DNA of 64,000 nucleotides from Amphiscolops sp. MND2022 (GCA_964187785.1 OZ076409.1:5644001-5708000), one strand, 5' to 3'. Counted from the stretch's first letter, positions 10,581 to 32,081 are shown. The notes: generated from the letters alone by a model not told the origin. A program made the numbers and translations.

Positions 10581-10794
10581 TTTAAAGTGAAAGTACTTTA
10601 AATGACACTAACGAGTGGATTTATCAACTTCAGGTGAAGAGTTTTTGAAGACTGTTATGATTAGAGATGTGTTATTGGATTGAGGAAGATGAACTTCTGC
10701 AAGGGTTTCAAGCGGTGGAGGAGTAGCAAATGTGAAAAGATGAAGTAGTAGGCAAGTGTGCTGGAAAAGAGTTTACAAAAAACTGAAAGAGTGT

Positions 10795-13700
10795 TCAAGA
10801 AGATGGAGGAGGAAAAGGATAATTTATCCGTGAATAGATTTTAAATGGTGTATCCGTAGTAGAGGTGACAGAATTGTTAATTAAAGTGTCATGTTGAGTA
10901 GTTAGATTGTCATTCGGATGAACATTACGATACACATCCCGGTACGAAGTAGCTGGTTCCTGCTAGTTCGATTTTTGTCCAATCAGAGCGCGAATATTTT
11001 TTTGGAAGTTTTACACTTGTCACACATTACGCGCATTGATAGGACGTTACGCTAGTTGACACAGCTTCGTACGTTGACTAGTTTACACCATTGGATAGTA
11101 CAGTAATTGACTAGTTTACACCAATTGACTAGTTTAAGCAATTTGAGCTACACACGCCGACTCATAACTACACTGCTTGATTTGCATACACAGTATCAAA
11201 TCGCATAAACAGTAAATCTGACTACTAATGGAAGTGCTCACGACAGGGACCAAAATTACCACGTTCAATGAAGCAATCGCCCCTTCATTATGAGACCTAC
11301 TTTCATTTGTTTGGGGAGACTTGGATGGGGGGGGGTGTTGTTGGATAAGAAACAGTATTTATCTGAGGGAGGATAAGGCACATGGTCCAAACTTCGTTTT
11401 TAGTTGACTAGTTATTGAATCATTGTTTACTTTGACTGATTTACGATGCTGTGGTATGAATTGGAATTAAAATGAACACTGAGTTTTGAATGCATATGAA
11501 CATGGTGTAAGTTAGTCAAAACTTTGACTAACTTCCACTTATTGCAAGTATAGCGATCTGCAAATTGCAAAAAGTGGAAGTTAGTCAAAGTTTTGACTGA
11601 ATTACGAAAAAAAGTATTTTTGGACTAACTTCCACTTTTCACTAACTACGTGTTTTGACTAGTTTACACTATTTTTCATTACGCGCGTTGACACAGCTAC
11701 ACCGTTGAAGCATAGACCGTCTTGACTAACTTACGCTGAATGACCATTTTACGGATTACACAGATTACGCTGCGTGACTGAAATCGAAGTCACCGCTACG
11801 TGTATCGTAATGAAAGTTTTTATGAGTATAATTAGGATGTGGGGGATGTTGAACAGGAGAGAAAAGAAGTGAAGCAGTTTTTTGGTGGGAATTGTGGTGT
11901 CGTTTCGGAAACAAGTTAAATTTAGGAAATTGAATTTTGTTAGGACGTTTAGTATAGAAAGGTGGGGGGAAAGTAACATCAGTAGAATGAATAATTAAAT
12001 TTGTTGAAGTGTCAATAAAATTATCTAAGGATTTGGATTTTAAAAGTGTACTTTTGGGTTTTTTGTTTTGAGTCTCATTGAGGTCATTGATCATTCGTGC
12101 TGTAAGAACATTAAAAAAACCATGTGCTATAGAAGTAAATAAGGTAATATTATTTTTAGATTATATTTAATAGATATTGTTTTGTAAAGTTTGACAATGA
12201 ATATGAGAGTAGCTTGTACAAAAAGAAATGTAGAAAAGTATATACCACATTGTGTGAATATAACAAGGGTATCCAAAAAGTGCAATAAAAGCATCTGAAA
12301 ACCATGTAGGCGTAAAAAGAGGAGTTAAATTCAAAAGTTTATCATGTAGTCCTATACGTAATGTATTATAAGGATTACCAGGATCTTGAGGGGAATTTGC
12401 ATCATAATTAGGAGTATTAGATGAAATTAAAGAATAGCTAAGAGCTTTGCCTAGTAATTGAAGTGTAGAATCAGAATGTTTGGAAAATAAAATACGATTC
12501 CAAAATTGGTCAAGTTCTGCATTAGAATATATACCAGCATCTTGAGCTGTAAAAGTGTTAGGACGTATTGTAGTTTTAAGATGTGAAGGTGTAAACATTA
12601 GTGGAGGTTTGCGTTTATTAGGTTCAGGTCCAAGAATGTGAAAATCTTGATCGTCTGAATCAGGGTCTAGTTCGATAATATTACGTGGATTATTATCACG
12701 TGTAATTGGTGTAGCATAGTCATAAGTTTGTCTTGTAATTGGATCAACATACATTAAGGTATCTTTAAATTGGATAGGTATACGGTCAAAGCATCTATCA
12801 GCTTTATATAAAGGAGATAAAAAATGAGGACAGTCATAAAGCCAGGCGGTTGAGCCTTCAACGTATAAGAAATTACTTCGATTACCGGTTAATAGAAAAC
12901 CAGCAAGTTGAGGATTTTGTACTGACATTGCGAGTATTGTAAGAAATTGGTTTCGTTCTAATTCGCATATGGTATGTAGAGTATTTAGTTCTTGTACAGT
13001 CATTGATGTAAAAACATGTTAATAGTGTAATCTATTTTCGTGTTTATATGTGCGTCATAGTCAATGGTGGCAAAGTTGTTTGAAACATTTAATGCAGGGA
13101 AGATAACTCTGTTATTTGAAGTGTCCAATACTATTTTACCAGAAATATATTCATCAATCATAGAATGATGATTGGGTTGTCCTGTATGCATATTGAAACC
13201 ATCAGTGTATGTAACAAAAAGGTCTGAGTATTGTGTAGAATAGAGAGGGTCTGGTTTACCACAAAAGGTTTGTGCTGTAGGAAAAACTTCAAATCTTGAA
13301 AGACTTGGGTTATTTGGATGTTGTGTATGAGGAGCATAAACATAGGGATATTCTGTACCTTTGATAACAGAAGGTATTTTAGGTTGTATTGAGTGTGGGG
13401 AATGTACAAAAGAGTCTGTTTCAATCCAATATCTATCTTCAATTTTAGTCATACGGCCAATGAAGTCTTGTAATGTGAAAATTAGGCAATAGTCATCATT
13501 GAACCAAACAAGAGTAAAAGGGGTTTTCGTTGTGGGTTTACAAAAACCATCTGCAAAATAGCAGTGTAATGTATGTCCATCTATTATCATGTCATTAGAT
13601 GTGTCATCATACGTAAGTTCTACTTCAGAAATTTCTAATCGCCAACTAACTAGGTTGACTTCGAATTGGTGATGAGCAGGACAGTTATGATAAGGGTTTT

Positions 13701-14155
13701 GAGTAGGGTCATATATCCAGTTTTTATCGGCAGGCACAAATGTAAATGTACCTGTGTACATTTTGTTCAATTGGTATACATTGAAAGGAGTTTGATATTG
13801 TTCTAATCGTTCTTGAAAATAATGGTCTTCTAAGACTGTGAACGTTTTTTTGTAGTGGAGGTTGTTCAATTTTCAATATTTTATCATTTGTACCATTTAA
13901 ATGATTTATAACGTTTTTACATTCTAATGGATCAAGAGTAACAGGAAGCGGTAATGTATTATGATTCCATACCGTCCTATCAACACGACGGTATTTTACG
14001 GAATCTTGAAAGCATATTTTCCTTTCTTTCTTTGCATAAGCAACACATTTAAAAGCTTTGATGCGTTTAGCTTTTGCTCGGACATATGCACGGGCTTTAA
14101 CACTTGCATGTTTAATGTCAGAAGGAGCTTCAGTGCATTGTTTTACATTAAGTAA
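10795..14155 (-). pseudogene. env: env of element A, central and C-terminal part (class III / chuvirus-G-like glycoprotein)
   Basis: ORFs 13000-13869, 12167-13003 and 11765-12094 are colinear with B env. Contains CELER...NPQLAG...WLYDCP...CFDRIP...YVDPITR and a C-terminal hydrophobic segment. Broken by frameshifts and a TIR element. Confidence 0.85.
10923..11812. mobile_element. 890-bp non-autonomous TIR DNA transposon inserted in the env tail of A
   Basis: 13-bp perfect TIR cattacgatacac/gtgtatcgtaatg with flanking AA duplication. Removing it restores the frame HKNFHPNDNL...DTPFKIYSRINYPFPP. Internal palindromes at 11508-11598. Confidence 0.85.
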
Positions 14156-14469
14156 TAAAGTACTTGTTTTGTTATGGTTATTGGATATTAAGTTAGAAGT
14201 AGGTCTTAGTTGTAGGTTACAAGTAGTACTTTAAGAAACGCTAACAGAGCTGCAGTTATTAGGTCTTTTAAAATGAAGACAACTATTCGATGAAGAATCA
14301 ATTTAAGTGTGATTCAAATCAGAAAATATGGTATTGAATATAAAGTAGTTACATCAGACAATCAGACAATTCATTTTACATCTAGAATATTAATGAGGTG
14401 CACTGTTCTAAAGTCTAGACATATAGAGGGTGGGGGATAATTATGAATTATGAGATATTTGGTATATCA
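14156..14469 (-). repeat. 3' LTR of element B
   Basis: Near-identical to 30250-30566. Confidence 0.95.
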
Positions 14470-15775
14470 TCCGACCGGATTCTGAAAAAAAAAGTTTTAA
14501 ATTTGGTGTTGTTTTTAGGATTTATTGATGGAAAATTGTGGAATGGGAGGTTTCATTTAAATTGTCGGAAGTTGTTTTAATACGTGTTCGGAAGTTGGTT
14601 TGATACGTGTGAAGAGAAGGAATAACAAAAGTTTGGTAGTTTCTGGTATAAAATTCTATGGAGAAAAATATAAATTTTTTAAGAGGAGATTTCGGTTTTG
14701 ACTTAGAGAAAGTTGTCTTCGTTTCTTTCCTATCGTGACTTACGGGCAATATCAGAACATAGTCTGAATGAGAGTGTTAAATAGGTTCGTTAATTAATAG
14801 ACTAGAGGATATATGTTGAGTTTACAAAAGAAAAAAATTTCGGAATTTTTGGAGTTGATTGGCATCTTTATATTGGTGATAATTTTAGTATTTTAATGTT
14901 TTCAAGGTCTTTGAATTTTCATATAAAATCTATTCTAAGTTTCTTCCGAGGCAGTAAAAGATTTGATTGACAGACAGAAATTCATAACAATTGGGAGATT
15001 GGCAAGAAAGGGCGGTCTGATTGACGGAAAAGTTCAGAGTGAAAGACCAAGATTCTTAGTTGTCTGGTAACTAAGCAGTCATCTTGTTTGTCTTATGAAC
15101 AACTAAAATGGAATGGCAGAACTTCGAAGCAAAAAGACGACGTGATCAAAACACTTTTAGAAGCCAAAACAAATCAATATGAGTCAACATGTGTGCAAAT
15201 TTAGATCATGAGGCTGATTAATTGTTGATTGTGAAAAGGCAAAGAAAAGTTTGGGCGAGCAAATTTATTCGCAAAATTGGCAAGAGACAAAGAGTTATAA
15301 GCTGAGGTGAGTGAGTTTTAATATGTGATTCGGTAAGAGTAAGAAGAAAAAAGGAAAGTGTTTTAGAACCGAAGTTATAGAGAAGTAAAGTTAAATTTTT
15401 GTGGAAGGAAGGTTAAAAAATTGGAATTTTGGTTAAAAAATGTTTGTTAAAGTGGAAGAAAGGTGAAAAGAAAATGTAGCTCCACATTTTAAAAGAAATT
15501 GGGACTAGAGCAACATGCTAAAGTAGATATTTTAAAATTTAGTCAATTAGAACCGAAGTTATAAGGGAGTTTTTCCAATAAAGAGGTAGGGAAAGAAGGG
15601 GGAAATTTTAAAACAATTAAGTAAAAAGGAAGGGTGAAGTGTAAAAGTAGAAGGTCTGGGGTTTAAAATCAATATAGGGAGGGGGTGAGAGTGCCGTACT
15701 TAAAACATAAAAGCAAAGACAGTTTTGAATAAAATGTACAAATTTATTTAGGGGAAAACAATCATTCAAAATATT

Positions 15776-16651
15776 TTAATCAACATCATTTAATGAAGTT
15801 ACCAAATTATCTAAATCATTTAAGGGGGTAGGGGATTGGGAGGATGGTGTTATGGGTTCAATACGAATGGGAATTAATGCAGGGGAAAGAGAGAGAGGGG
15901 GTAAAGGAGAATGGATTGTGTCTTTAATTGATACATGTGAACAATGGGGGGTATTGCATTGAAAATAATTTTGGTAATTAGAGCAATTATGCGAGGGGAT
16001 TTGGATACTTAAAGGTGATAAATGTCGAGGTTTCGACTGAGGCGATTTAAATTTACACAATTTTGAAGGGGGGAGTGTATTATTAATCTTATCTAATTCA
16101 AGAGTAGTTTGTTGAATAAGTTCATCATGATGTGTTTCGTAAAGTTTTATTGCATCAGTATATTGTGCAATTTTCTGTTTATAGACAGCTGTGTGGACCA
16201 GTCGACGGACAGGTGGACCAATTCCATCGAGAGGTGGCTGTGGACGTCTGGGGTGCCGTGGTTTATTGCGTAGAAGATCAGTGGTCAGTTGACGGACGGC
16301 AGAATATTGTTGAAGATTGGGAGAAGTGGTGACTGCATTTTTGGGGTGAAGAGAAGAAGTGAGGTCTGTCATCTCTACTGGAGATTGGAGAGAAGAAGAA
16401 ATCACTGGGAGAGTAGTCGAAGCAGTTGTTGTCAAGAGAGGAGAAATGGGTGGCAGGTGAACAGTAGAGGTTGAAGAAACCAGTGATGTCACAGTAGTAG
16501 TTTGTGACGAAATTGAAGACGAAGTTGAAGAAGCATCAATGGATGGAAGAGTGAATGTCGAAGAAGTAGAAGAAGCGGGGAATGGCAGAAAGGAGTTGAG
16601 GAGTTGATTAAGAAGAGGATATGCCAGAATGGAAGGAGGATAAGATGACAT
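15776..16651 (-). CDS. 291-aa Ser/Thr/Pro-rich accessory ORF of element B downstream of env
   Basis: Intact ATG-to-stop frame, preceded by a splice-acceptor-like TTTTTTTTCAG. Confidence 0.6.
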   Translation of the reverse strand: MSSYPPSILAYPLLNQLLNSFLPFPASSTSSTFTLPSIDASSTSSSISSQTTTVTSLVSSTSTVHLPPISPLLTTTASTTLPVISSSLQSPVEMTDLTSSLHPKNAVTTSPNLQQYSAVRQLTTDLLRNKPRHPRRPQPPLDGIGPPVRRLVHTAVYKQKIAQYTDAIKLYETHHDELIQQTTLELDKINNTLPPSKLCKFKSPQSKPRHLSPLSIQIPSHNCSNYQNYFQCNTPHCSHVSIKDTIHSPLPPLSLSPALIPIRIEPITPSSQSPTPLNDLDNLVTSLNDVD

Positions 16652-16793
16652 TACTGAAAAAAAATGATTGTTAAGTTATTTTGTATTTGAATAATTTGGA
16701 GCAATTGAATATAGATAAAGAATGTTGTGATCAAATTTATTGATGTCAGAGCAGAAAAAATATGAGTAGGAAACTAAGTAAGGGTATTATTAT

Positions 16794-19616
16794 TCAGAAG
16801 AGAAATTGAGGTAATAAAAAGTTGGTAAATAATTCAGGAGGAAAACGGCAAGAAAAATAAACTTTGACAGGACTGTCAGGCGGGTCAAAAATATTATTGA
16901 CAGAAGTTAAAGGGATGTCGTTAGTTTTAATTGGCGGTGGAGTAGGGGGATCAATTTTAGTAGATTGCCCAATGGTTATGTATGGGGGAATCGGTAGAAG
17001 AATTATCACAATTGGTGTCATCAGGAGGAGGAGAATTATGTAAATATAGAGGAGAAGATAATGAAGATATTTGAGGGGGTCGAGGAGAAAGATTATTATG
17101 AGAGAGAAGGTGAGAATTATAAATTGGAGGAGGGGGTGAAAAATCTTCGGTGTTGAAGGATTGTGTTTGATCAGTAGGAGTAGAATGAAGAACAGAAGAA
17201 GAAAGGGGTTTGATTGGGGAAGAATTAGGAGAAGATCTTGGCATTGGGGTTTTTTTTTAAAATTAAGGATTTTTATTTTAATGTTAGTATGAAAGTTAGG
17301 CGGACGAGGTTTAGGACTAGAAGAAGAAATGTGAGTTTTCGCTAATGGGGAAAGGGGTGAATCTGAATTGTCAGATTCGGAGTGTGAATTGGATGATTTA
17401 AGCATAGCAGTCATCATGGTTTGGGTAATAGTTCCAAAGAAACCAAATCCCAAAGCAGTTAAAACAGAAATTTGTTTTTTAAGCAATTTTTGAACAGTAA
17501 AGGAACGATAAATACTGAAGAGTGTGTTAAAAGCGAATTTTAAAAAAGAGCGGTAGAGAAATAGATTCCACATTGGGTTAAAATATAGCATGAATAGCCA
17601 AAGAGTATTATGAAAGCATCGGTAAACCAATCAGGAGAGAAAAATGGGGTTAAGTTTAACATGTAGTCGTGAAGACCAATTCGGAGTGATCGGTAAGGAT
17701 TATCTGGAAAAGAACTAGTAGATTGTTGATTCTTAAATTCATAGCTAAAAGCTTTTCCAAGGAGTTGAAGAGTTTTGTCAGAATGTTTAGTAAATAAAAC
17801 TCTATTCCAAAAATGTTTTAGTTCTTTTTGAGAATAAATACCAGCATCTTGAGCAGTGAAGGTATTATGACTAATAGCAGTTTGAATTTGGGTTGGTTCA
17901 CAAAGAAGTAGGGGGTCTTTTTTAATAGGTTGAGGTGTTAAAACATAATATTGATCAGTGTCTGGGTCAAGAGAAATAACAATTTGAGGATTATTTTCAC
18001 AAGGAATTTGATTGGCATATTCAAAAGTTTGACGTGTAATAGGGTCGACATACATAACAGTGTCAAGATAATTGACAGGAATTTTTTGTCATAGCATTGA
18101 TCAGCAATGTATAAAGGTGAAAGGTGATGAGGGCAATCATATAACCAGGCGGTAGAGCCTTCAACATATAAGAAGTTACTACGGTTTTGGGTTAAGAGGA
18201 AACCAGCGAGTTGTGGATTTTTAACAGACATAGCGAGAATTGTTAAAAGTTGGGTTCGTTCTACTTCACATATAGTATGAAGAGTATTAATTTCAGCAAC
18301 AGACATGCTTTTAAAGACATGGTTTATAGAATAGTCAATTTTAGTGTTAATATGAGCTTCGTAATCAATAGTCGCGAAATTATTTGAAGAGTTTAGAGCA
18401 GGGAAAAGAAATTCGTTTTGAGTATGAATTAATTTTCCAGAGATTAACTGGGTAGTAAGTTGATTGTACTGTTCATTTTGTGGACGTTGAAGAGGGTTAG
18501 GTTTACCAGTATGCATATTAAAAACCTTCTTTATATGTTATGAAAAGATCAGGATATTGAGTAAGGTGTAAAGGAGTAGGTTTGTTACAAAACATTTTTT
18601 TTCAGGAAAAATTTCAAAGCGAGAGAGGCGGGTTTGAGGTTTGGTATCATGATAAGGAGTATCTGTTGGAATAGTAGAGGAGTGGTTATTAAAAAAGTGT
18701 TCAGTTTCAAGCCAATAAAAAGTGTTCAGTTTCAGTTATTGAGCTTAGACATTCTACCAATAAAGGAAGTATTAAAAAAGATTAAACAAAGTTCTTCAGG
18801 GAACCAAACGATGGTGAATGGTGTTAATATAGTTGGTTTACAAAAACCATCATCGTGGAGACAAGGTAAAGTATGTCCATGGTAAATTAGTTTATTGTCT
18901 TTATCATCATAAGTAATTTCAATTTCTTTTACGATAAGAGACCAGCTATCTTTTTCGATTATGTAATCATAACGATCCCAACATACAACTTTTTCTTTTA
19001 GAGTTGAGTTTAATACTAATTGTGAATTGGTGATCCAAGCGAAAGCACCATAATGAAATGTATTTAGTTTAGTAATACGAAAAGGGGGTGGTTTTGTTTC
19101 TAAAAGGCGTTGTTTTTGAATATCATCGAAGAATGTAAAGGAATTAGAGTAATTAAAAGCGTCTAGTTGAGGATTGTTAGTTCCGTTCAAATGGCGGATA
19201 GCATGTTTGCATTCTGTAGGGTCAAGAGTACGGGGACGTTCCATAGTGTTTTGATGGTAATCAGTATAATCATGACGACGATATTTGTAATCCGATTGAG
19301 CACAGACAAATTTTACACGTTTTTCATAAGCTTCACAGGTCCAAGCTTTAAGACGTTTAGCTTTAGCGCGAACGAAAACATTGACAATAGCGCGGGTAAT
19401 TTCAAAAGCAGATGGGGCTTGAGCGCATGGTTGGACTCGAGTAAGACTGAACTGTCTTAAATTATGTTGTTTAGAACAATCATAGTGAGAGACTAAGAAG
19501 TTCGAAATATCAGGATCATTGGGATCTACATGATCAGAGGAGGAAGCAAGTTGCGAAAAGACTAAGAACGGGGAAGAAAGAAAATAGAAGATCGAGTGAA
19601 AAAAGAGGAAATGCAT
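16794..19616 (-). pseudogene. env: env of element B (class III / chuvirus-G-like glycoprotein), frameshifted
   Basis: Hydrophobic signal-like segment, then SHYDCSKQHNLRQFSLTRVQPC, conserved Cys spacing, CEVER...NPQLAG, a TM segment and a Pro/Ser-rich tail; ORFs 18732-19616, 17938-18516, 17540-18055, 16794-17630. Confidence 0.85.
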
Positions 19617-19789
19617 TTTAAAATTGGGCAGTATTTTTTAAAAAGGTAAGGGTATTAAGAAATGTAATAGAGCCGTGTAAAAGACGAAACGGAGGATGGT
19701 CGCTTACAAAGTGACTAAGATTTGTAGCAATAAAAGGATGAGAAGAGATTTAAAATAAACTGTTGTATGTGAGGGAATAGGATGAGGAC

Positions 19790-20938
19790 TTAAGTTATGA
19801 AATTTAACGGTAATTTAATTTTAAGTTCTAAATTTGCGTCTTCTAGGCGAAGAAATTCTTTACGGCGACGTACATTTGAAAGGTGGGGATTTGAATTAAG
19901 TTTATGGGTGGCAAGGTAAAGAAAGCGAGGATCTTGGCGGGGGCTACTGACAAGAGTGTTATTCACGATTAAAGGGTAATCAACACGATTAGGTGTTGGA
20001 GGAGTAGAGTATTGATCAGTAGTGAGGTCAATGTTAAGTAAGTGACTATCAGAAAGGATAGTGGAATTATGAGAGGTAGGACGAGAGAAAAGGTGACCAG
20101 CGTGATTATAAGAAGAAATAGAAGAACGTTGAGAAGAGGTAGTGTCAATTCCCGAAGTGGGAGAATTTTCTGCGTTAGAGAGAGAGTCTGAAGAAAGAGA
20201 TTGAGAGTGATGGCGTAGAAGAGAAGAATTAGTACTTGCGAGAGAAGGAGAAGGGCGACGATTATTGCGAAGATTATATCGATGACGAAGTGGAGGGTTA
20301 AGAGTAGATTCAGAAGTAGTGTCAAGAAGGTTGTCTAAAGAAGAAGTTGTGTACTTAGAGGCGGAACTTGAAGGAGGAAGACGAGGAAAAAGAAGAGAGC
20401 AAGTAGTTGAATCGACTTCACTGAAGTCAGATTTCTTTCGGAGAGAATCAATAGATTCAAGGGCAGGGATTTTGAGAGGTTTAGGTGGGGGAAGTGAAGG
20501 TTGAGAGAAGATATGAGAACAAGGTGGAGGTATTGAAAGAGAATTATCTAATTGAGAGCGTCTGCGAAAAGATTTTATGGAGGTAGGTATAAGTTTTGGT
20601 GTAGGAAGGGTTGGATTATTAATATTTCTAAGGAGAGTAGGGTTTATATCACTGGGATCAGGGATATGAAAAGAAAAAGGAAGTGGAGAATGGGTAGGGG
20701 TTATATTAAAAGGGGATTCAGTATCGGAAAGTGGGAGAGTTAAAGAATTTTGAGTTTGTTGAGGAATAGAAGCTTTCAGAGGAGTGTGAGTTGGGGTATT
20801 AACAGGGGTGGTATCTAAAGAGGGGGTGATTGGTATAGGGTTCAAGGGAGGTTGGTGAGGAACTGGTAAAAAACTTTGTGATGAAGGTATAGTATCAGTT
20901 GAAACAGAAGAAGAGGGTTGAGAAGAACAATCAGACAA
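19790..20938 (-). CDS. Ser/Pro-rich ORF between integrase and env (element B)
   Basis: 382-aa frame homologous to A 30988-31557 (HRYNLR, PPTP..DYPL.V, P..DPRF). Confidence 0.65.
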   Translation of the reverse strand: MSDCSSQPSSSVSTDTIPSSQSFLPVPHQPPLNPIPITPSLDTTPVNTPTHTPLKASIPQQTQNSLTLPLSDTESPFNITPTHSPLPFSFHIPDPSDINPTLLRNINNPTLPTPKLIPTSIKSFRRRSQLDNSLSIPPPCSHIFSQPSLPPPKPLKIPALESIDSLRKKSDFSEVDSTTCSLLFPRLPPSSSASKYTTSSLDNLLDTTSESTLNPPLRHRYNLRNNRRPSPSLASTNSSLLRHHSQSLSSDSLSNAENSPTSGIDTTSSQRSSISSYNHAGHLFSRPTSHNSTILSDSHLLNIDLTTDQYSTPPTPNRVDYPLIVNNTLVSSPRQDPRFLYLATHKLNSNPHLSNVRRRKEFLRLEDANLELKIKLPLNFIT

Positions 20939-21269
20939 AAATACAGTAAGATCCAGGATGGAAACAAAAGGGAGATATATAACAATTTTCTATTAAGTAT
21001 GAAAAGATAAATAAAGATTGATATTAGGAAGGTGTAAAACTTGTAGATGGAAAGTAGTGAATAGAGATTTGAAAAGAATACGAATGCTGTTTCGATGAAA
21101 TGAAGTTTTGACGATAGCAACAGTTCAGTCAGAGTTCACTAAGGTAAAGTGAAGAAGTGTGTATAAGATACAGATACTAATTAGATTGTCGTGTGTCAGA
21201 CTTCAATAAGAGTCTAGACTAAGGACAATATGCAAAGGGAGGAAAACCAAATAAAAAATGAATATTTAA

Positions 21270-24200
21270 TTAAGGGGGGAAATCGATGTTTGGTTTGGAT
21301 GAATTATAATGTCTAGGAGGGAGTGAACGTAAATTATAAGGGGAATGAGGAGCTCGTTTATAAGTGGAGTCATTTTGAAGGGTAAGTGAGGGGGAGGAGG
21401 AAATATCAGGAGAATCAGCAATACGAGGGAAGAACTGAGGAAAGGAATCATTTGAAGAGTTCGAATAATAAATGGGGTTTGGAAGCATTTCAAAGTCAGA
21501 GTCGTGAGAATCAATAGTTTTATCAAGATTATCTTGAGAAGAAGAATGTGAAGGGTTGCGGTGAACAGGAGTAGTTGTTGGAATATTATCTAATTTGTCT
21601 TCTAAGGAAGAATAATGTGGAAAATTTTGATATCTAGGAACAGGAGTAGGAGAAGTATTGGGTTGTCTAATTTTTGAGGATGTAGGGGTTTGAGAATGAT
21701 TTGGATTGTGCGGTAAATCTAATGAGGAAAATTGAGAAAATGTATCTTGGTAAGGTTCAGTATCAGGGTTATTAATAAGGGAAGGGGTAGAATGATAGTG
21801 TTTAATATATGGAAAAATAATGGGTTCTTTGGGATAATATGGTAGAATATGATTTCGATGGGTTTGGAATGTAGAGCCATCTTGCGATAACAGTTCATAC
21901 ATTACTTCAGATAGATGGTTAAGTATTTTATATGGGCCAATTCGGAGAGGTTTGAGCTTTTTTGAAAAATTGACAGGTTTAAAATTCGTATGAATCACAA
22001 AAGTATTCAGAGGTAATTGTTTTAAAGGAGTTGTTTCAAATGTATAACTTTGAGAATTTAGTTTATGATTTAAATGGCGGTGGACAGCTGAATATATTTC
22101 TAACATTGCAGTTTCAGCTGCCAAAAGCCATGGGAAGATAGGTTTATCAAGAAGTGAATGGAAGAAGGGATTAGGGTCTTGAGTGCTATAATGTGAATGA
22201 GGGGGAAGAGACTCACAATAAGTTGCTATACAATTTTTTGAAGCATCACGAGGTAGGTTAGGAGAAAAGGTAAGAGGTATACGAAGATGGGTATGGAAAA
22301 CGATTTGATAAGGGGAAAGTTCAAGTTGAGAAAGAGGTGTTGTATTATGGGCATATGCGTACATTTGAGTTTGAAATGACCAGTTAGTAGGTGGATTTTG
22401 TAAAAATATCCGGAGATGAGTTCCAAGATTTCGGTTTTGAACTTCCACTAAACCGTTTGTCCACGGGGAGTAAGGAGTTCGAGGTGAGTGATTAATATGG
22501 AAAAGAGAACATAGATGAGCCATATCATGATTGATATATTCAGTACCTCGGTCTGCAACGAGGCATTGAGAGGGAACAAACTTGGTGATCCAGTGATGGA
22601 GTAGGGTTCGAATTGCATATTTAGAAGTGATATTAGGAGCAGGGTTAGTAACAACAAAGTGACTAAATGCGTCAATAATTACAAAAATATATGAGTTGTT
22701 TTGAGATGATGGAGAAATAGGGCCTTTAGTGTCCATAGAGATCCGGTAATTGAAATGAGTAGCACTTTCGTAAAAGGGAAGAGGGGGAGAAATATTTTGG
22801 GGTTTAATAGGAAAATGTTTTATAGTTTGACATTCAATGCAGTCATGGATGGATGAAAATAGAGAACCATAAAGGTAAATGAGGGATAAAATAAAATTGA
22901 TTAAATGTCTTAATAGAGAGTTTTTCACCTGAATGACCACGAGATTGTGTTTTACTAAATGCAGCATAAAAGAGTTTAAATGGTAAACATATACGTGTTT
23001 GGTTAATAGAAGGTTGAGTTTTAATAAAGATTTCTTCAAAAATTCGAAAGTTAGGTGTATAATATTGAATAAGATGAGTGTTTGGATCAATATATAAATG
23101 TTGGAATTGTTTATAATATGTATATAAAAAGGAGTTTGCTTTAATAATTGGGGTCAAGGAATAAGAAAGTCTTTGTTTTTGTTTTAACCATTTATATACT
23201 GTAGAAAGGACAGTATCATCTTTTTGAGCTTGAAGTAAAATGGGTACTGTTAAAAAGAAATCAGAAGAGAGAAAGAAATTATCAAATGTTTTACAGTGAG
23301 CAAAGAAGGAAGGGTCAAAGAATGGTAAAGATTGGGTATGTGTAGGCTTTGGAGAAGTTGGGGTAATAGCATTACTGTCAATAGTGTTATTACTAATAGA
23401 AGGGGAGTTGGTAAGGTTGGTTAGGATATCTTGAGACAAGTTGATATCGTTGAAGTAATGGTGTTGTATTTCAGTAAAAAGGGTGTGAAGTTCATGAGGT
23501 GGTTGCGAATACTCTTGGGGGATTCGTTTAAGAACGGGGTCGTCTGTATCGTATAAATCAGTTTCATTTAAAAGAGGATTTTCTTGGAGTAAAGTAACTT
23601 TGTTTTTGACAGGTTTTTTGTATTTATTTAAGAATGAGGAAACAGATTGGAAGGAAAAGGAATCAAGAGGAGTATATTTAACGACAATGCCTTTATCTTG
23701 GATACGAAGTGTGAATTGATCATCACCATAATCAGCTAAAATTAAATGTGAATCAATTTTATGTGTAGGAAGTACGTCTTCATGTTTTATTGGATAGTGA
23801 ATGGGTTTTAAAATAATATCGTTTTTGAGTTGAAGAAAATCAATATGTGGAGGGAGAGTTTTGTGTTGGAGTTGGCATGTTTTATTATTAATAGTTGAAA
23901 AATCTATACTGAGCATATCAGCAACAGTAAGGTTTGTACCAGCTGTATGAATTATTTGTAGGTTTGAAAATTTGGTTAATAGCATTTGACCTTTACATTG
24001 TCGAGGAGTTAGGTTACCTTTACGAGTGAAAAGAAAAAAAATAGGATTGTGATGCGTAAAAATGGTTATCGGGAATTTAGAACCAACTATAATGAATTCG
24101 TATTGAGGAAGGGCAAAAGTAATAGCACAAAGTTCTCTATCATAGGTAGAAAGTTTTTGTTCTTGAGTTGTTAAAATACGAGAATTATAAGAAATGATTT

Positions 24201-26484
24201 GCATTTTGCTTTTTAAGTTAGGTTGAAATAAAACTGCACCTAGGCCAATTAAAGAGGCATCGACAGTTATATAAAATGGATGGGTAGTACTTGGAATGGC
24301 AAGTTCTGCATCTCTAGAAAGAGAAAGTTTGATTTGATTGAAAAGTTTATCGAGAGCAGGAGTCCATTCAAACAAAATATCATCTTGGAGAAGAGTGTAA
24401 AATGGTTTCAAGGAAATGTGTAGTTTGTTGATGAATTTGGAATAAAAATTCATTGATCCTATGAAGCGCAATAATTCAGTTTTAGAAATGGGTGTCTTTA
24501 ATTGGTGGATGGCGTCAAGTTTAGAGGAGATGGGTTTGATTGTATTATTACCAATTTCATGTCCAAGAAATTTGACAGTGAGGAGGATATAGAAAGATTT
24601 TTCAGGAGCAATTTTAAGATTATTTGTTTGACAGATTTGGTAAAGTTGTTCAATTAAATTTAACATGTGAGGTTTTGTATGTGCAAGAAGGAGAATGTCA
24701 TCTATATAAACTAATGCAAAACCTTGGTCAATAAGTTTTTGAAAAAATGAATACATTTGTTTGGTAGAAAAATTGGGTAGGCCTTTAAGACCATAAAATC
24801 CATGAATAAAAGCGTAATGTTTGTCACCAGAAGAGAAACTATTTAAGGTTATAGTTTCTTCATCTAATGGAGCATGAGCGTAAGCATAAATGAGATCAAT
24901 GGCGGCTTTGAATTTTTTGTTAGCACGGGCAAGTTTGGGAGCTAAAGGTTCAATAGGCCATGATTCGGAAGATTGATCGGTATTTGAATTAAGGTGTCGT
25001 GCGTCCAAAACGACTTTAATAGTATCTCCTTTAGGGATAATAATGAAAGAGCGTTTAAAAATGTGGTGCCATATATGGATTTGTCAGAATGAGTAGAACC
25101 AATTTGGCGGATAATATTGTGTTTTTCTAAGTCATCAAGGAGTGTTTTTAATTTTTCTCTATAGTGAATAGGAACTTTTGTCGGTCGTTGGGTTTGAAGT
25201 TTGTCATTAGGTTTAAGACGGATTCTAAAAGGAGTAGCTATTTGGCCAACATCGTTTTTGTGTGTTGTGTTGCATAACAGGTACGATATTTAACAAGAAT
25301 GGAGCAGAGTTGTAAGTATTCTTCATCAGTGACATCAGAATACTGGAAGTTAAATTTATTGAGGAATTGTTGAGTGTCTGGTGAATATGGTAATGGTGGG
25401 AGGATCGGGTTAAAATTTGAGATGGTTGCAAATTGTTTATTTCAAATTGAGGGTTGCGAAGAGAAGAACGACGACGGAGAGGTTTTGGTTCTGAAAGATC
25501 AGGATAATAAGAATGAAATACAGTGTGTATTAAGGAGTTTACATCATTAACTTTATATTGAGTTGGTTGAATATTAGTGGCTGGAACCTCAAAGTATCCA
25601 ATATATCCAGGAGCAAGAATGGCAGAATGGTGGGTAATATTTTGAATAATAACAGAACAACTAGAGGGTTCGGTATTAACATTTTGGTAGACTTGGAGAG
25701 AATTAAAAGTTGAGTTGAAGCGTGTATTAAAAAATGGATGAGGTGTGGAAGGGAATATGAGTTCGTTATCAGAAGTTTTAAACGTTAAAGGAAGTGTTGG
25801 TTGAATTGGGAAATGGATAAATTGAGAAGCGTTGAGTTTAAAATAGAGCTTATTTTTAACATTGATAGTGTATATGTAAGAAAAATATGGATAATCTTTT
25901 TCCTTATGAGCTGTAAAAGGGAGGGTGTTAATGCGAGATTCATGTGGAGTATTGAATGTCAGTGACAAACTTTCAATATTAAGAGTTTTAACATATTTTT
26001 CAAAAAAGGGAGTTCCAAGAATATTGTATTTAATATTGACTGCAGCAAAAGGAATAATAAGGGTACGAGTATTTCCGTGAAGGGAGGTATGAAGTGTAAG
26101 TATTAGATTATGAAGAATAGGTACTTCGGACTTATTAGCAACGGTTTAAGTTTTATATTCATTTTGATGTGGGGAATGTTTTGAGCATTTTAAAAAGTGA
26201 TCGGCTAAAATGGTAAAAGTGGGTAAAGTTAAAACACAAATGGATGCTCCACTATCAAGTAGGAACAAGAGTTCTAATTTAGAAGGGATAGAGGTATCCT
26301 CACTAGGTTTGAAAATGTATAAATTAATAAACCAAGTGGAAGGGGTAATAGCGTTGGCATGTTCAGTATAAGTTGAAGAAAGCTGAGATAACGGAGGGTT
26401 AGGGTGACACATGTTTATTTCAAAATTAGTTTCTGTATTGGAGTGGTTTTGAAGAGGTGGTGTAGATGGATGTGTAAGATTCAT
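21270..26484 (-). pseudogene. pol: pol of element B: protease, RT, RNase H, integrase (frameshifted)
   Basis: LLDSGAS (26146-26484); YIDD and VDAS...RELCAI...ADMLS (22843-25008); ISMD, IIDAFS, DRGTEY, TNGLVE and IGPY (21270-23090). Confidence 0.95.
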
Positions 26485-29198
26485 AGATGGTTTGTATTGG
26501 GATTGAGAATAATTGTTTGAATTTGAATGAGATCTACTACGATAACGATCATTGCGTGGTTTAGAAGGGGGACGATACGGAGAATTGTATCTATTAAAAG
26601 AAGAAAAAGTTGAGGAACGTTCACGGGAACCAGGGTAATATTTGGATGGACTACGAGAAGAATTAGAGTTATAATATGTTCGTGAAGAAGTGTATGATTT
26701 ATAAGGATTTTGATTGTAATGTCTATCATATCGAGATCTATCACGATGGTGGTAAGATGAATATGTGCGGGAGGGAGTTTTAATATTATTTCTAGGACGT
26801 GAATGTGAACCTGAATAAGAACGAGATTGATATCGAGTTTCGCGAGAAGATCTGCGGGAAGGATTACTGTGACTTCGACTACGGTAACGAGGATAATGAG
26901 ATTTATTGGAAGGGCTTTTAAAATGTTGATAAAAGGTGGAGTCGGAGATCTAGATTGTGGTTTTCATTCTTTGAGCATATTAAGTCGGTGAAAGCAAGTT
27001 GAAACACAGTGGTTATTTTTATGGCAAAAGAAACAATATTTTTTGAATTGGGGTTTCGATTCATTGTTAGGGTCCATTGCTTGAACTTGTAGAGATTCGG
27101 AAGGAGGATCTTGAATAGTTGCATTTTGTTGAAAATTATTAGAGAGGGTGTTAATTTCAAGGGAAAGTTCTTGAGTTTTAATTTGTTCAAGAGTAATATC
27201 TTCGGAATCGACCATATTGACTAGAGAGTGAAAAGGATTTGATGGTTCTAAGGAACTGGAAATATGTTTGACTTGGCGTTTATTGGCAAAGTCGTTTAAT
27301 TTTTTAGGAAGACCACGGGTGAAAATTTCATTACATTTGAGGTTAATAGTAGAAGGGTATTCATTATACCAACCTTGTTTAACAAGGTTTCGACTTTGAG
27401 CGCGAAGTGACGGCCATTTTCATTATCCTTTTTACCATGGGAAAGAGCTTCAATTTGAGCATGATATGCGTGTTTTTGAGAGTAGAATTGTTTTTTTAAA
27501 GATTTGGAGAAAAGATGACCAATCATCTTTATAAACTTGTGGAAGACGATCATACCAATTGGAAGCAGTTCCTGTGAGGGAACAATAAAGGAGAGACATT
27601 CGACGAGAATGCCAAGTTAGATATGAGTGAATATCTAAAGGTTGAGGTCCAAGTTGAAATGTTACTCGTGCACTTAGATGTGCTAGAAATTTTTCAGGAG
27701 GATACGTATGGTCGTAAGAGTTTAATAGGATCTGACAAAGCAGCAAAAGGGACAGAAGGAGTGACTGGAAAAGAGAGCGATGAATATGTAGAAGAAGGGT
27801 TGAAAGCTAATGTTGAAGTAGGAGGAATAGAATTAGGGGGGTTTGGAGGGGGTTGGAGAGAATTAGTGGGGAAGTTTTGAAAAGTAGGATAGAGAGAAAG
27901 ATAAGGGTTGTACGAGGTGGATTGGGTGGTAGAAGAAATAGTTTGAGAGATAGTAGGAATTGGTGGTATAGAAGAAGAAGCAAATGGGTTTTGATTAGGG
28001 ATAAAAGGATCATGGGTGGAAGAAGGTGGGGGATTTTGAGTGATTGACTGTGAGGGGAGAGTATTATTTAAAGAAAGAGGAATAGGGGGTAATACGGGTA
28101 TGTGAAGAGCGGACGGTTGAACAGTATTATAAGGAACAGCAGGTGGAGTATTAGAAGGTGTAGTATAATGGTTCGGAAAGTTAGAAGTAGGAAGGCGTTC
28201 AGTAGTTGTGGTGATTTGAGAAGTAGAAGTGGAAGTGTGTTGATTTAAAGATGGGGTAGGGTTTAGTATAGCATTTGAAGATGAGGAGAGAGTGTGAATA
28301 GAAACATTGGAAGTTGTATCAGTTGAAGGTGGTAGAAAGTGTTGTTGCATATAAAGACGAATAGGAGGAGGAAGATAAAGATTTTTATCAAGACTGTTGG
28401 AGTCATAGGCAAGGTATTTAAAATGAAAAGAAGGGAAATCGAGAAGATTATAAAACTGAGGGTGTTCATTATCAGGAGTATCCAGAAAAGGTAAAAGCTC
28501 ATTTTGAGTAAACTGTTGAGGAAAATTTATGCAAGCATCTTGGAATTTTGAGAGCCAAATGAGTTAGTAATTATGTCGAAAAAATTTTCGAAGGAAAAGA
28601 GAGTATATCTGAATTTGTTCTTTTGTTTTGGTAGTGAGGGTAAGATTCTGAAAGAATTGATATTGAAAATGGTGAATTTGAAGAATATCGGTAGTAGGCA
28701 ATGGTGGGGGTTATTTTCAATAGTACGAAATTGTTCAATTTTAGGAAGGTCAAAAAGAGATTCCTTTTGGAGAAGGTCGTGTAAGAAAGAAGGGTTAAAA
28801 ATATGTTTAGGTAAAAGGTTATTTTTTTCTTGTAGATGATTGAGGAAGGTTGTAAAGACATTAGCAATTGAGATATAAATATTGTTAGGATAGATGTTTT
28901 TTCGAAAAGTATCAGAGCGATTTGTGAAAGAAGTAAAGGGAATAGAAAGTGGAGGTTCTTCAGAATTTTCAAAAAGGGAATGGGTGTCAATATAGTATAG
29001 ATAAGAGTCATGATGTTCACGAATAAGAGGGATTGTATGAATATCTTCCGGGTAGGTTTCAAAAGAAAGAGGAGTGGTGGAGTTATAAATAAGATTGTTA
29101 AGAAATTGAGTAAGAGTTTGTGAAATATCACGGGTGACACGTTGAGAGGTATTGAAAACAAAGGGAAGGGGAATAAGGGGTTGTATGGGTTCGGTCAT
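26485..29198 (-). pseudogene. gag: gag of element B (N-terminal domain, P/S/T linker, capsid-like region, CCHC knuckle, RS-rich tail)
   Basis: SLTGTASNWY capsid-like motif; CFFCHKNNHCVSTC; RS/RY-rich stretch ~26500-26900. Confidence 0.85.
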
Positions 29199-29434
29199 TA
29201 TGAGTGTCTATGGGGATTGAAATATAGCCAAATCCAATCCATAACAACTTCAGGATGGACGGATGGTTCAGTAGGGAGTGGAAAGAAATAGCGATGAACT
29301 TTTTGGCGAATGTAGATATAGAATGAGAAGAGAGACGTGTGAAAATATATAGGTACACTGATAAGAAAGACGGAAAAGAGGATGAGTTGAAAAAGGGCAA
29401 AGCAAGGATTGGGGAGAAGAAAGAGGAGGTTCAT
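29198..29434 (-). CDS. Hydrophobic upstream ORF3 of element B; its stop overlaps the gag ATG (TAATG)
   Basis: Homologous to D 715-1056. Confidence 0.55.
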   Translation of the reverse strand: MNLLFLLPNPCFALFQLILFSVFLISVPIYFHTSLFSFYIYIRQKVHRYFFPLPTEPSVHPEVVMDWIWLYFNPHRHS

Positions 29435-29678
29435 ACAAAAGGAACGAGAAAAAGAAAGGAGAGTGAGAAAGGTATAAGTGATGATAGTAGATTAGGTATG
29501 AATATAAAAGGGAGGAGGAAAAGGGGGAAACTTAGAAAGAAAGGAATTTAGCAGAAGAGAGATTCGACAATTTTTTCAATGAGCAGCATTAAGAATACTA
29601 GCATTGCAAAAATGTATGAAACAAAAAGAATAATGGTGGCAAGATTTTCGGTAAGAAACATAAATGAAAAAGCAGGGA

Positions 29679-29816
29679 TTATGCTCTGTATTGTTCAATA
29701 GCATGAGGAAGGAAAGGGATAATAAATTTATCAACAAGAAGAAGAACAATGGCACAGCGACCAAAAAAATAGAGGAAGATTAAGCAAATACAAACGGAGT
29801 CATTAAGGGAAAGCAT
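29679..29816 (-). CDS. 45-aa predicted single-TM upstream ORF1 of element B
   Basis: MLSLNDSVCICLIFLYFFGRCAIVLLLVDKFIIPFLPHAIEQYRA, translated by hand; aligns without gaps to D uORF1. Confidence 0.6.
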   Translation of the reverse strand: MLSLNDSVCICLIFLYFFGRCAIVLLLVDKFIIPFLPHAIEQYRA

Positions 29817-29964
29817 GGAAAATGTGGGAGGAGGTAGGAATGGGAAAGAATTTTAAATAGAAAGTTTAAGATAGAAAAATGGAAGGTAAAAAAGGGAATG
29901 AAAAAAAAGGTGTAGAAAGGAATGGGGAAATTACGTTAAAGGGATTAGAACGGGAGAAGAAAGG

Positions 29965-30168
29965 GTACCAGCGCGTAGCTGAATCACAAAAGGTGATTAG
30001 TACAGAAGAGAATGTTGTACCAGCGCGTAGCTGAATCACAAAAGGTGATTTGTACAGAAGAGATAAGGTGTACCGACTACTGGGTCGAACCACTATATGT
30101 GATTAGTACGTAAGAAGATTGAAGTTGTGTACCGACAATGAGTCGAATCACTTTGTGTGTTTAGTACA
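29965..30168 (-). repeat. Four structured leader repeats (element B)
   Basis: gtaccagcgcgtagctgaatcacaaaaggtgattagtac and variants. Confidence 0.85.
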
Positions 30169-30236
30169 GAAAGTTTGTTTGGTATTGAAAGAGAAAATGA
30201 GTACAAAAAATGTTGATAAAAAGGAAAGAAAAGAAG

Positions 30237-30247
30237 TGGTCGCACCA
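30237..30247 (-). promoter_or_regulatory. Primer-binding site, element B
   Basis: TGGTGCGACCA, 2 nt from the LTR; complementary to a tRNA 3' end ...GCACCA (possibly Gly, unverified). Confidence 0.75.
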
Positions 30248-30249
30248 GT

Positions 30250-30566
30250 TAAAGTACTTGTTTTGTTATGGTTATTGGATATTAAGTTAGAAGTAGGTCT
30301 TAGTTGTAGGTTACAAGTAGTACTTTAAGAGACGCTAACAGAGCTGCAGTTATTAGGTCTTTTAAAATGAAGACAACTATTCGATGAAGAATCAATTTAA
30401 GTTGTGTGGTACAAATCAGAATATATGGTATTGAAAATAAAGTAGTTACATCAGACAATCAGACAATTCATTTTACATCTAGAATATTATTGAGGTGCAC
30501 TGTTCTGAAGTCTAGACATATAGAGGGTGGGGGATAATTATGAACTATGAGATATTTGGTATATCA
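30250..30566 (-). repeat. 5' LTR of element B
   Basis: Near-identical to 14156-14469. Confidence 0.95.
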
Positions 30567-31980
30567 GTAAGTTAAATTGTCTCAAATTGTGTTGTTTTGC
30601 ACAGTCATAATGAGAAACCATGAGATTTGTAATATTCGGATCATCCGATGGAAGATAGTTTTCTGTGTCAGAGGGTGTTATGGGTATTGGAAAGGTGAAG
30701 TTAAATAAGTGTGAATAGAGTATCAGAATTGTTTTATATGAGGTTGTAAGGAGTTCAAAAAGAGGTAGTATATTTAAGACCTGAGTACGGGTTACAAAAT
30801 ATGATTTTGCCATATGTGATAGAAGGTATATTGAGGTCTCGTTCAAAATCAATGTGTACTACTTCAAAAGGAGCAGGAGAAGTTTTATGTTCTATCTTTG
30901 AGACGTGAAATATTGGATGTGGATTTAAACCTTGCAATTTGACTTTGACTTCAACTTTGAGTTCTAGATTCGGTGTCTGAAGGCGTTTTAGTTCTGTTTC
31001 CTTCTTTTGTGAGATAAGAGATCGTTGTTTGTAATGAAGCGTTCTGCAAGGATAGGAAATCTAGGATCGTGCTGTGGGTCGTAGATGGTTATACCATCGA
31101 CTCTAAGTGGATAGTCAGCAAATTTTGGAGTTGGAGGTCTAGATTGATCTGCAGTATAATATTCAGGTATTCTAATATGTGCGGGAACAGGAGTAGGTAT
31201 TATAACTTTTGAGAAAAGATTTCCAAAAAGGAATGCAGTCTGAGCGTCTGAGGAAAGTAGAGAAGCGGTTTCAAAACCAGATGTAAAAAATGGAGAAGGT
31301 ATAAAGTCAGAAGAAGTTGTTTCAGAAGACAACGGTTGTGCGTGTTGTCGTAGAAGTCCTAAAGTAGAATTGCTAGAAAGAGCAGATAGGTTAAGTGTAG
31401 AAGTGTCTGTACTAAGTCTGCGTGAATGAAGATCTCGAAGATTATATCTATGGTGTGGTACAAAAAGTGAGCCTGTTGTATCTTGTGATGGAGTGTATTC
31501 TGATGTATTGTCTAAGAGCTTTGATAGTGATGTAGAAGGTTTTCGAAGAGGTTTCAATGGTGGATAAAGTTTTGAGGAAGTAGTACTAAGTTCTGATGGT
31601 ATTTTCAGTGAAGGTAATTTTGTATATTCAGTATCGGGGATTTGTACAAAATTAAGTTGAGGTTGTAATCTAACAGTTTTGATAGCTGTAGGATGTTTGT
31701 AGTTAACGTATTGTTCAACACTTTCAGGGTTTGGTATGTGTACTATAGGAGTGTTAATAGGGGTTTGTTGAGTAGGAGTGTTTACATGTAATTCAGTTAT
31801 AGGTGGTCTATGAAGGAGTGATGAAAATGTTGTTTCAGAAACGTATGATCTTGGTCTTTTAGAAGGAGTAGTAGGAGTTACATTACTAGAGTTTGTAGTG
31901 TTGGATACTGAAGATTCAGGAGTAGAAGGAATACTTGGAGTTGATGGAGATATATCAGAGGAAGAATCCAGGATTCTTGA
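30567..31980 (-). pseudogene. env: Ser/Pro-rich ORF and N-terminus of env, element A
   Basis: 30988-31557 is homologous to B 19790-20938; 30538-30852 carries MVSHYDCAKQHNLRQFNLL. Confidence 0.8.
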
Positions 31981-32081
31981 AATGTTTTCAACAGGTTATC
32001 TTTTAGCTAACTTGTTATTGATTATCTTTCATTCAGCTGTAGTGACTAGTTTTGAGTGAGCCAGCGGATAGAATGATGAGG

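Follow-up and report, generated by a model that had tools for sequence, protein, structure and literature searches.

We analysed a 64,000-bp stretch of the genome of Amphiscolops sp. MND2022 (GCA_964187785.1, OZ076409.1:5644001-5708000), referred to here as the window, and conclude with a probability of about 0.85 that it holds two dead, nested copies, elements A and B, of a single, highly abundant family of Ty3/gypsy retrotransposons that possess an env gene ('errantiviruses'); this gene is predicted to encode a class III fusion protein of the chuvirus type. A sequence-only reading of this DNA had proposed a Ty3/Gypsy lineage of 16-18 kb, with at least three diverged members in the window, that captured a class III fusogen and so constitutes a candidate invertebrate retrovirus family; it had also suggested modelling the Env protein, looking for intact genomic copies and computing the ratio of nonsynonymous to synonymous substitution rates (dN/dS) between the env genes of A and B.

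Between 6 and 60 kb of the window, every long frame is on the minus strand. Self-comparison yielded three pairs of direct repeats, and the ends of these repeats identify them as the long terminal repeats (LTRs) of three nested elements, A, B and C: 14156-14469 with 30250-30566 (96.5% alike), 6277-6736 with 41375-41635 plus 60243-60397, and 41636-42365 with 59513-60242 (98.6% alike). Element A spans 6277-60397 on the minus strand, with a GATG duplication on both sides, and has its 5' LTR interrupted by C, an unrelated GC-rich Gypsy element. Inside the env gene of A lies element B (14156-30566, 16,411 bp), also on the minus strand, which starts with TGATAT, ends with ACTTTA and has TTAC on either side. 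The interval 10795-30860, on which the sequence-only reading had centred, consists of the two ends of the A env gene enclosing all of element B, a nesting that the earlier reading does not mention. Element A integrated first, with its GATG duplication, and B later entered the A env gene, with its TTAC duplication; element C in the 5' LTR and an 877-bp repeat in the env tail are further late arrivals in A. The likeness of the LTRs rises with nesting order, from 95.4% plus one indel in A through 96.5% in B to 98.6% in C, which backs this account of successive integrations. Between A and B, pol is 57-60% identical and env about 52%.

Both elements carry the Pfam domains RVT_1, RT_RNaseH_2, RT_RNaseH, rve, Integrase_H2C2, Integrase_p58_C and SH3_Tf2-1, in the order reverse transcriptase (RT), RNase H, integrase, and further motifs readable in their frames are a CCHC knuckle, the DSG of the protease and YIDD/YLDD. 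The primer-binding site (PBS) of B, TGGTGCGACCACT, lies two bases past the 5' LTR (30235-30247, minus strand), the form common to the family being TGGTGCGACCAC(T/G). A pattern search combined with ARAGORN identified it as complementary over 13 nt to the CCA-bearing 3' end of tRNA-Leu(TAA) genes, and over 12 nt to that of tRNA-Val(TAC) genes, both of the same genome. As judged from their domain set and order, LTRs, duplications and PBS, A and B are Ty3/gypsy elements, in agreement with the backbone first proposed for them. Assignment to BEL/Pao is ruled out by the domain families. Troyka elements are defined by a 3-bp duplication and CG...CG termini in the part of the source available to us (PMC12440569), and this identity was excluded because the duplications of A and B are 4 bp long and both elements begin with TG. 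The tRNA genes are themselves clustered: ten tRNA-Leu(TAA) genes stand in tandem at L023 (G000:C11:22444504-22447523), spaced by about 270 bp and with 3' ends matching the PBS, and five tRNA-Val genes, the 3' ends of which match the family PBS, are grouped at L019. A CCGGT(C/T)G motif occurs just upstream of the 3' LTR in A, B and a natural copy.

The Cys-rich protein on which the earlier proposal was built is present on the minus strand of both A and B where it had been predicted, with all the quoted motifs, and its match to the Pfam family PF24664 (Monjiviricetes_fusion) is far beyond chance. Four broken pieces of env in the window match this family at E 9e-13 to 2e-4, two of them at 47.5 and 35.5 bits, and an intact natural B-type Env of 923 amino acids (P0001) does so at 96 bits (E 1.8e-27; cut-off 27 bits). 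No other Pfam family matched P0001 at E<=1, neither herpesvirus glycoprotein B (gB; PF00606) nor the F-type families of baculoviruses and insect errantiviruses, and a sequence search against PDB chains gave no match at E<=10. The protein appears to begin with a signal-like segment, followed by an ectodomain of about 640 residues and a membrane anchor, and to end in a long tail rich in Ser and Pro; all 14 of 14 ectodomain cysteines are common to the A and B types. The R-x-K/R-R motif is absent from both P0001 and the intact A-type Env, P0008. Of the features claimed in the sequence-only reading, the signal-like start holds for both types (residues 1-21 of P0001 are hydrophobic, as is the window 27-45 of P0008), and so do the anchor (hydrophobic window 715-735) and the ensuing tail of about 170-220 residues in P0008; the anchor stretch of the B type (about 661-700) falls below the hydropathy threshold. 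The claim that env follows the integrase is correct as to order, with a separate open reading frame (ORF) of about 400 amino acids, ORFx, intervening between the two.

An exhaustive profile search with Env collected 2,726 proteins at E<=1e-3, of which 367 reached E<=1e-30, and 33 of these sequences formed the alignment for an AlphaFold2 model of a natural 641-residue ectodomain (mean predicted local distance difference test, pLDDT, 70.2; predicted template modelling score, pTM, 0.46; helix at 393-438). The matches listed by Foldseek against the PDB were all herpesvirus gB, the best with E 1.9e-11 and probability 1.00. In an independent search of 48,161 representative chains with VIA-align, ranks 1-11 were all class III fusogens (Z 9.3-5.1). 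They included gB at Z 9.3 (2gum_A, 405 residues aligned, root-mean-square deviation, rmsd, 14.8), 8.9, 8.5 and 7.0, gB domain IV at 6.5, rabies G at 6.0, Chandipura G at 5.9 and Bourbon virus Gp at 5.2; Thogoto Gp followed at rank 13 (Z 4.2). Against viral structure models in BFVD, the best named matches were glycoproteins of Tacheng Tick Virus 4, a xinmovirus, Soybean thrips chu-like virus 4 and dermapteran chu-related virus 142 (E 2e-25 to 1e-24; template modelling score, TM, 0.36-0.39), the first herpesvirus gB appearing at rank 28 (E 4e-13). Features of Env in the ESM Atlas agree with a class III, chuvirus-type protein; a scan of IMG/VR with the Env alignment gave seven pattern matches and no relatives. 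The PF24664 profile and the two independent structure searches thus support the prediction of a class III fusogen that most resembles chuvirus-type glycoproteins and is not of the F type, as had been proposed from the motif spacing of Env.

The 1.07-Gb assembly that contains the window holds many relatives of both elements, for which the numbers of first-look candidates given here are not copy numbers. Of 8,042 first-look candidates for the first 301 residues of the B Env, 131 matches were scored, 70 of them in open frames of at least 900 amino acids. With the intact A-type P0008, 50 matches were scored among 11,871 candidates; all are 98-99% identical, in frames of 916-938 amino acids, and 49 of the 50 are stop-free. 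A piece of the B RT gave 60 scored matches among 34,477 candidates, a pool in which other Gypsy families are bound to be present; the open frame around the match is at least 2,500 amino acids long for 34 of the 60, with 2,640 the commonest length. Cross-reading of the scored env and RT matches identified 26 places in which the gag-pol and env frames are both open, at a pol-env distance of about 4-5.5 kb, so that the intact genomic copies sought from the outset exist. An uninterrupted GAG, Ty3/gypsy POL and gB-type ENV is a property of natural copies, and not of the copies in the window.

The intact layout comprises an LTR, the PBS, a 5' untranslated region (UTR) of about 1 kb, gag-pol as a single frame (~2,640 amino acids), ORFx (about 420-450), env (about 900-925), ORF4 (about 450-500), an ORF5 of variable size and the second LTR; the block from gag-pol to env takes up 12.4 kb, with 1.65 kb separating POL from ENV. 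One natural A-type copy, pieced together from two separate stretches, measures 18,132 bp, with 421-bp LTRs 99.5% alike and an ACGT duplication; it has one in-frame stop in gag-pol, and its ORFx, env, ORF4 and ORF5 frames measure 418, 927, 449 and 179 amino acids. The corresponding frames of a natural B-type copy measure 453, 952, 496 and 308. The lengths of element B and of this A-type copy bear out the 16-18 kb first estimated for the family.

ORFx and ORF4 are conserved across the family. The natural A and B versions of ORFx are 34% identical (E 7e-33) and the A-type and B-type ORF4 36% (E 2e-66), and all 90 of the 90 scored genome matches to ORF4 lie in open frames of 466-522 amino acids. 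Between the ORF4 of the window copy of A and that of a natural copy, dN/dS is 0.15 at a synonymous divergence (dS) of 0.39. On these sequence comparisons, ORFx and ORF4 are kept by selection. No Pfam family was found for ORF4, the ESM Atlas gave no usable match, a profile search of the PDB gave nothing better than E 0.59 and 0.81, and its AlphaFold model was useless (pLDDT 33.9).

Selection on env was estimated by the Nei-Gojobori method (NG86) on natural open copies, excluding the comparison of L013 with L031, which are one locus. Against L013, dN/dS is 0.036 for L014 (dS 0.03), 0.062 for L016 (dS 0.22) and 0.069 for L015 (dS 0.90), the range for B-type copies overall being 0.036-0.072. The comparison between A-type and B-type env that had been suggested gives about 0.25, at a saturated dS. 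By these estimates env is under strong purifying selection.

The coding strand of the family is poor in G. In A and B (6277-41635) and in loci L028, L029 and L031 it consists of 30-35% A, 24-28% C, 8-12% G and 30-36% T, with about 9% G overall; in open natural copies, third codon positions hold 4-7% G. In the flanking DNA, G and C each make up 18.5%, and the composition of element C is balanced. G-poverty is a property of the living family and not a product of decay. Editing of G to A was considered as its cause and dropped, because C rather than A is raised relative to the flanks. The near-absence of G from the coding strand may bear on the error spectra of reverse transcriptases or on editing by the host.

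A scan of metagenome contigs yielded eight loci with a relative of env, two of them long enough for their layout to be read. The first, L032, is a whole contig of 13.2 kb with gag, protease-RT-RNase H, integrase, an env matching PF24664 (E 7e-38) and two further ORFs; in the second, L039, pol is followed by two ORFs, an env matching PF24664 and a further ORF. Both contigs resemble A and B in RT-RNase H (34-42% identity; element C, 23-24%) and in Env (22-29%), and G-poverty in the metagenome relatives is milder, at 13-18%. The same pol-env(-ORF) order in such diverged contigs argues that the pairing, and the habit of carrying an ORF after env, are older than the family. On this comparison the pol-env pairing looks inherited. 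An unexplained ORF of 1,032 amino acids lies between pol and env in L039. Among the post-env ORFs, L032:9651-12092, L036:2318-4060 and L039:13404-15254 are weakly alike (E 3e-5 to 3e-4 between contigs), while the similarity between those within L032 reaches E 2e-26; ORF4 shows no similarity to the post-env ORFs of these relatives.

By analogy with known elements, copies of the family would replicate by tRNA-primed reverse transcription inside Gag particles, followed by integration with a 4-bp duplication. Env would be translated from a subgenomic or spliced RNA and might fuse particles with other cells, for instance carrying them from somatic to germ-line cells in the manner of Drosophila gypsy/ZAM, and ORFx and ORF4 would be accessory genes needed by the element.

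Several observations count against this account of A and B as members of an env-bearing Ty3/gypsy family. The window copies are both dead, and activity of these copies themselves is unsupported. The LTR of B ends in TA rather than the usual CA, and no purine-rich tract was found before the 3' LTR of either element (14470-14485 in B, 6737-6750 in A). In the ectodomain model 142 residues have a pLDDT under 50, and the TM to solved gB is low (0.25-0.31) with a high rmsd, values that are expected for a monomer model of a multi-domain protein, yet weaken the fit. The first-look candidates cannot be equated with copies, and expression and splicing of an env RNA are presumed. With third positions at 4% G, the base composition is so extreme that it may also distort the NG86 estimates; a pN of 0.059 against a pS of 0.52 (proportions of nonsynonymous and synonymous differences) leaves a wide gap in spite of this possible bias.

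Among the alternatives, the one we rate highest, though still as unlikely, is a purely intracellular retrotransposon in which env is open only through youth or serves some purpose other than cell entry. Many copies are indeed very young, with A-type env sequences 98-99% identical and the LTRs of one natural copy 99.5% alike; env expression and fusion must be presumed, and B, which lacks ORF4 yet has LTRs, may have been copied in trans. Youth, however, does not explain an env that stays open and conserved across sub-lineages at dS up to 0.9 with dN/dS of 0.07, and the 14 of 14 cysteines kept between A and B types likewise speak for a maintained ectodomain. We consider it somewhat less probable again that the family itself recently acquired its env from a chuvirus-like RNA virus, and is a newly born retrovirus lineage. 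Such an origin would fit the nearest named structural matches, which are glycoproteins of chu-like and xinmo-like viruses, and the membership of Env in a family named for the Monjiviricetes. Against it, the A and B env genes are only 52% identical, with pol diverged in step (57-60%), the contigs from other sources keep an env 22-29% identical in the same order downstream of a pol 34-42% identical, and gB-type env and pol are described as co-diverging across phyla in the accessible text of Chary and Hayashi (PMC13524379). The capture put forward in the sequence-only reading is accordingly not borne out for this family, given the shared pol-env order of the diverged contigs.

A third explanation, that the env frames are a fragment of an endogenous chuvirus that merely lies beside retrotransposons, we regard as very improbable. 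Endogenous viral elements derived from chuvirus glycoproteins are common in arthropod genomes, according to the portions available of two reports (PMC7642597, PMC10084718). Here, in contrast, env lies between the LTRs and within the target-site duplications of both A and B, keeps its position in the natural 18.1-kb copy, and is accompanied by pol about 4-5.5 kb away in the 26 cross-read places. An abundant env-bearing Ty3/gypsy family therefore remains our preferred interpretation. We extend it only tentatively, and at less than even odds, to a lineage of 'complex' giant errantiviruses of 18 kb and five ORFs, starved of G, active now or recently, present in thousands of copies in a non-arthropod animal, distributed more widely than one host, as the similar layouts on the contigs from other sources suggest, and missed by the size and gap filters of the published screen. 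Under this extension, ORFx and ORF4 would be selected genes without detectable outside relatives, resembling the accessory genes of complex retroviruses.

The remaining features of element B, all on the minus strand, are consistent with this layout. Its TTAC duplication was read at 14152-14155 and 30567-30570. The 3' LTR (TGATAT...ACTTTA, 14156-14469) differs from the 5' LTR (30250-30566, by self-BLAST) by 8 mismatches and one gap in 317 positions. Read from its 5' end, B has a gag-pol region at 21270-29207, spread over several frames and comprising, from frames and Pfam matches, an N-terminal domain, a low-complexity stretch, the CCHC knuckle, a protease with DSG, an RT with YIDD, RNase H and integrase. 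ORFx follows between integrase and env (19790-20989, a frame of 399 amino acids, Ser/Pro-rich). The env gene, located by tblastn and Pfam at 16833-19616, contains SHYDCSKQHNLRQFSLTRVQPC and CEVERTQLLTILAMSVKNPQLAG (19616 to 16833) and has undergone at least five frame changes, near 18732, 18070, 17546, 17253 and 16967. An ORF5 frame of 299 amino acids, Ser/Thr/Pro-rich, occupies 15776-16675. Between env and ORF5 the window copy has no ORF4, where the natural B-type copy has one of 496 amino acids: a stretch of roughly 2.3 kb with ORF4 (L031:4661-7136) is missing from B at 16676-16832, so that its 16.4 kb is the length of a deletion derivative. The 5' UTR contains a direct repeat of ~35 nt in two copies just downstream of the PBS (29965-30060).

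Element A, also on the minus strand throughout, has its GATG duplication at 6273-6276 and 60398-60401, as read from the sequence. Its LTRs are of the TG...CA form, the 3' LTR (TGTGATGCC...AACAGCTCA, 6277-6736, from self-BLAST and repeat ends) differing from the split 5' LTR (3' part 41375-41635, 5' part 60243-60397, both by self-BLAST) at 19 of 416 aligned bases and by one 44-nt indel. A 44-nt tandem duplication is present in the 3' LTR at 6537-6582 and absent from the 5' LTR. The PBS, read at 41360-41372, has decayed to TGATGCGACCAAG, the natural copy having TGGTGCGACCACG. The gag-pol region (32082-40237, from frames and Pfam) comprises gag at 37039-40237, protease at 35936-37237, RT-RNase H at 33990-35843 and integrase at 32082-33989, and is followed by ORFx (30988-31995, a frame of 335 amino acids). 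The env gene starts at 30813, in a frame open from 30858 that includes SHYDCAKQHNLRQFNLL; its first 82 residues, with the start, the signal-like segment and SHYDCAKQHNLRQF, were found by tblastn at 30567-30813 and are severed by B, the LTR of which interrupts the gene at 30567. It resumes at 14155 with its main part (11810-14155, by tblastn), which covers the ectodomain from about residue 74, the anchor and part of the tail, with frame changes near 13870 and 13018. After the 877-bp repeat it runs from 10932 to 10798, where the final 45 tail residues were identified by tblastn with residues 857-901 of P0008 (89%). The env of A is dead in the window, disrupted by both B and the repeat. Downstream lie ORF4, the conserved post-env gene (9183-10607, a frame of 474 amino acids, supported by genome matches), and an ORF5-like frame of 129 amino acids (8434-8823), which has 179 in the natural copy.

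The unrelated 877-bp repeat (10933-11809, minus strand; from tblastn of env and genome repeats) probably represents a small non-autonomous transposon; copies of its first 401 bp, 96-99% identical, occur elsewhere in the genome (2131 first-look candidates). Its bases 205-303 also have matches in reverse orientation. Element C, delimited by self-BLAST and Pfam at 41636-60242 (minus strand), is a Gypsy element of 18,607 bp and 52% GC in the 5' LTR of A, with 730-bp LTRs 98.6% alike, TGTAACG...CGTTACA ends and a flanking duplication that reads as 3 bp only (CAT). Its RT is 23-24% identical to that of A and B, which places it in another lineage, and no class III env was found in it; about 5 kb of open frames without a Pfam match lie downstream of its integrase (43122-48320). 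Self-BLAST revealed a third member of the family in element D (16-1997, minus strand), a 5' part with the gag N-terminus and 5' UTR/LTR that is truncated at the window edge; its likeness to B is 69% for 16-617 (against 28486-29102) and 68% for 1577-1997 (against 29965-30420). The three diverged members of the sequence-only reading can accordingly be retained as A, B and the fragment 16-1997, while the frames at 31-41 kb turn out to be A's own gag-pol and C belongs elsewhere. A non-LTR retrotransposon on the plus strand (60646-63751; endonuclease family E 1e-3, RVT_1 E 2.7e-39) adjoins the insertion site of A.

The window and its relatives provide a well-documented case for an old and widespread class III env-bearing Gypsy type, with exact ends, nesting, intact relatives and selection figures. 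They indicate that elements of this type can reach double the ordinary length and bear additional conserved genes, so that screens with a 10-kb limit undercount them. With its many open copies, the family is a candidate for research on the movement of an invertebrate retrovirus-like element from cell to cell.

The association of a gB/chuvirus-type env with a Ty3/gypsy backbone is already known as a kind. Chary and Hayashi describe, in the parts of their study accessible to us, a set of 1,512 intact Ty3/gypsy elements with an env gene, drawn from most animal phyla (PMC13524379; bioRxiv 2023.10.26.564294; eLife 2026), with an env either of the F type or of the 'HSV/gB-type' (HSV, herpes simplex virus) that co-diverges with pol across phyla; the same text notes that gypsy POL, too, is found beside the Chuviridae-like glycoprotein known from mosquito BEL/Pao elements, a protein of gB-like structure (PMC13524379). 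The sequence-only suggestion of an undescribed kind of retrovirus is therefore contradicted by published gB-type elements across metazoan phyla. As far as the accessible methods go, prefilters in that study removed regions >10,000 nt and POL-ENV gaps >500 nt in insects or >1,000 nt in other animals (PMC13524379). The present family, with its 12.4-kb block and 1.65-kb gap, exceeds both limits and would probably have been dropped if its host had been screened. Profile matches to rhodopsin-type receptors (7tm_1), 146 in number, mark this host as an animal; the cuticle-protein family Chitin_bind_4 matched neither its genome nor the control genomes, and on this weak evidence the host is probably not an arthropod. 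The supplements of that study yielded neither the four env motifs looked for nor the PBS, a result that shows little given that cells of more than 400 characters were covered in part. Titles and abstract openings retrieved from the literature mention no giant env-bearing gypsy elements in invertebrates, and a literature search on PF24664 returned nothing related.

With the gB-type errantiviruses of Chary and Hayashi, the family shares a Ty3/gypsy gag-pol followed by a class III env, the GAG-POL-ENV order, a tRNA PBS, an Env with signal peptide, Cys-bridged ectodomain and anchor, and the presence of multiple copies with intact ORFs. It differs in length, 16.4-18.1 kb as against about 7.4-12.6 kb in the part of their Supplementary file 1 available to us, and in two more conserved ORFs, ORFx and ORF4, relative to the elements described there. 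The published groups are distinguished, in the accessible text, by RNase H with a 'mini' domain bridge ('ancient') or by a pseudo-RNase H (insect) (PMC13524379). Glycoproteins of the Chuviridae/Jingchuvirales share the Pfam family PF24664 with Env and are its best structural matches in BFVD (E about 1e-25), whereas they belong to RNA virus genomes rather than to an LTR element, are 12-15% identical in structural alignment and contrast with an Env that has a tail of about 170-220 residues past the anchor. Mosquito BEL/Pao elements, in what is accessible of Dezordi et al. 2020 (PMC7642597), carry the same type of glycoprotein on a BEL/Pao instead of a Ty3/gypsy backbone. Herpesvirus gB has the class III fold in common with Env, and at about 10% identity the likeness is one of fold only. 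Drosophila gypsy, ZAM and Idefix also have an env after pol in a Ty3/gypsy element, but theirs is a class I, F-type env. Drosophila gypsy, like the present family, makes a 4-bp target duplication, and these three elements are about 7-8 kb long. Giant Gypsy elements with extra ORFs are represented by Ogre in plants and Burro in planarians, neither of which is known to carry a class III env. What sets the present family apart is its size of 16-18 kb, its possession of ORFx and ORF4, and a coding strand with 9% G.

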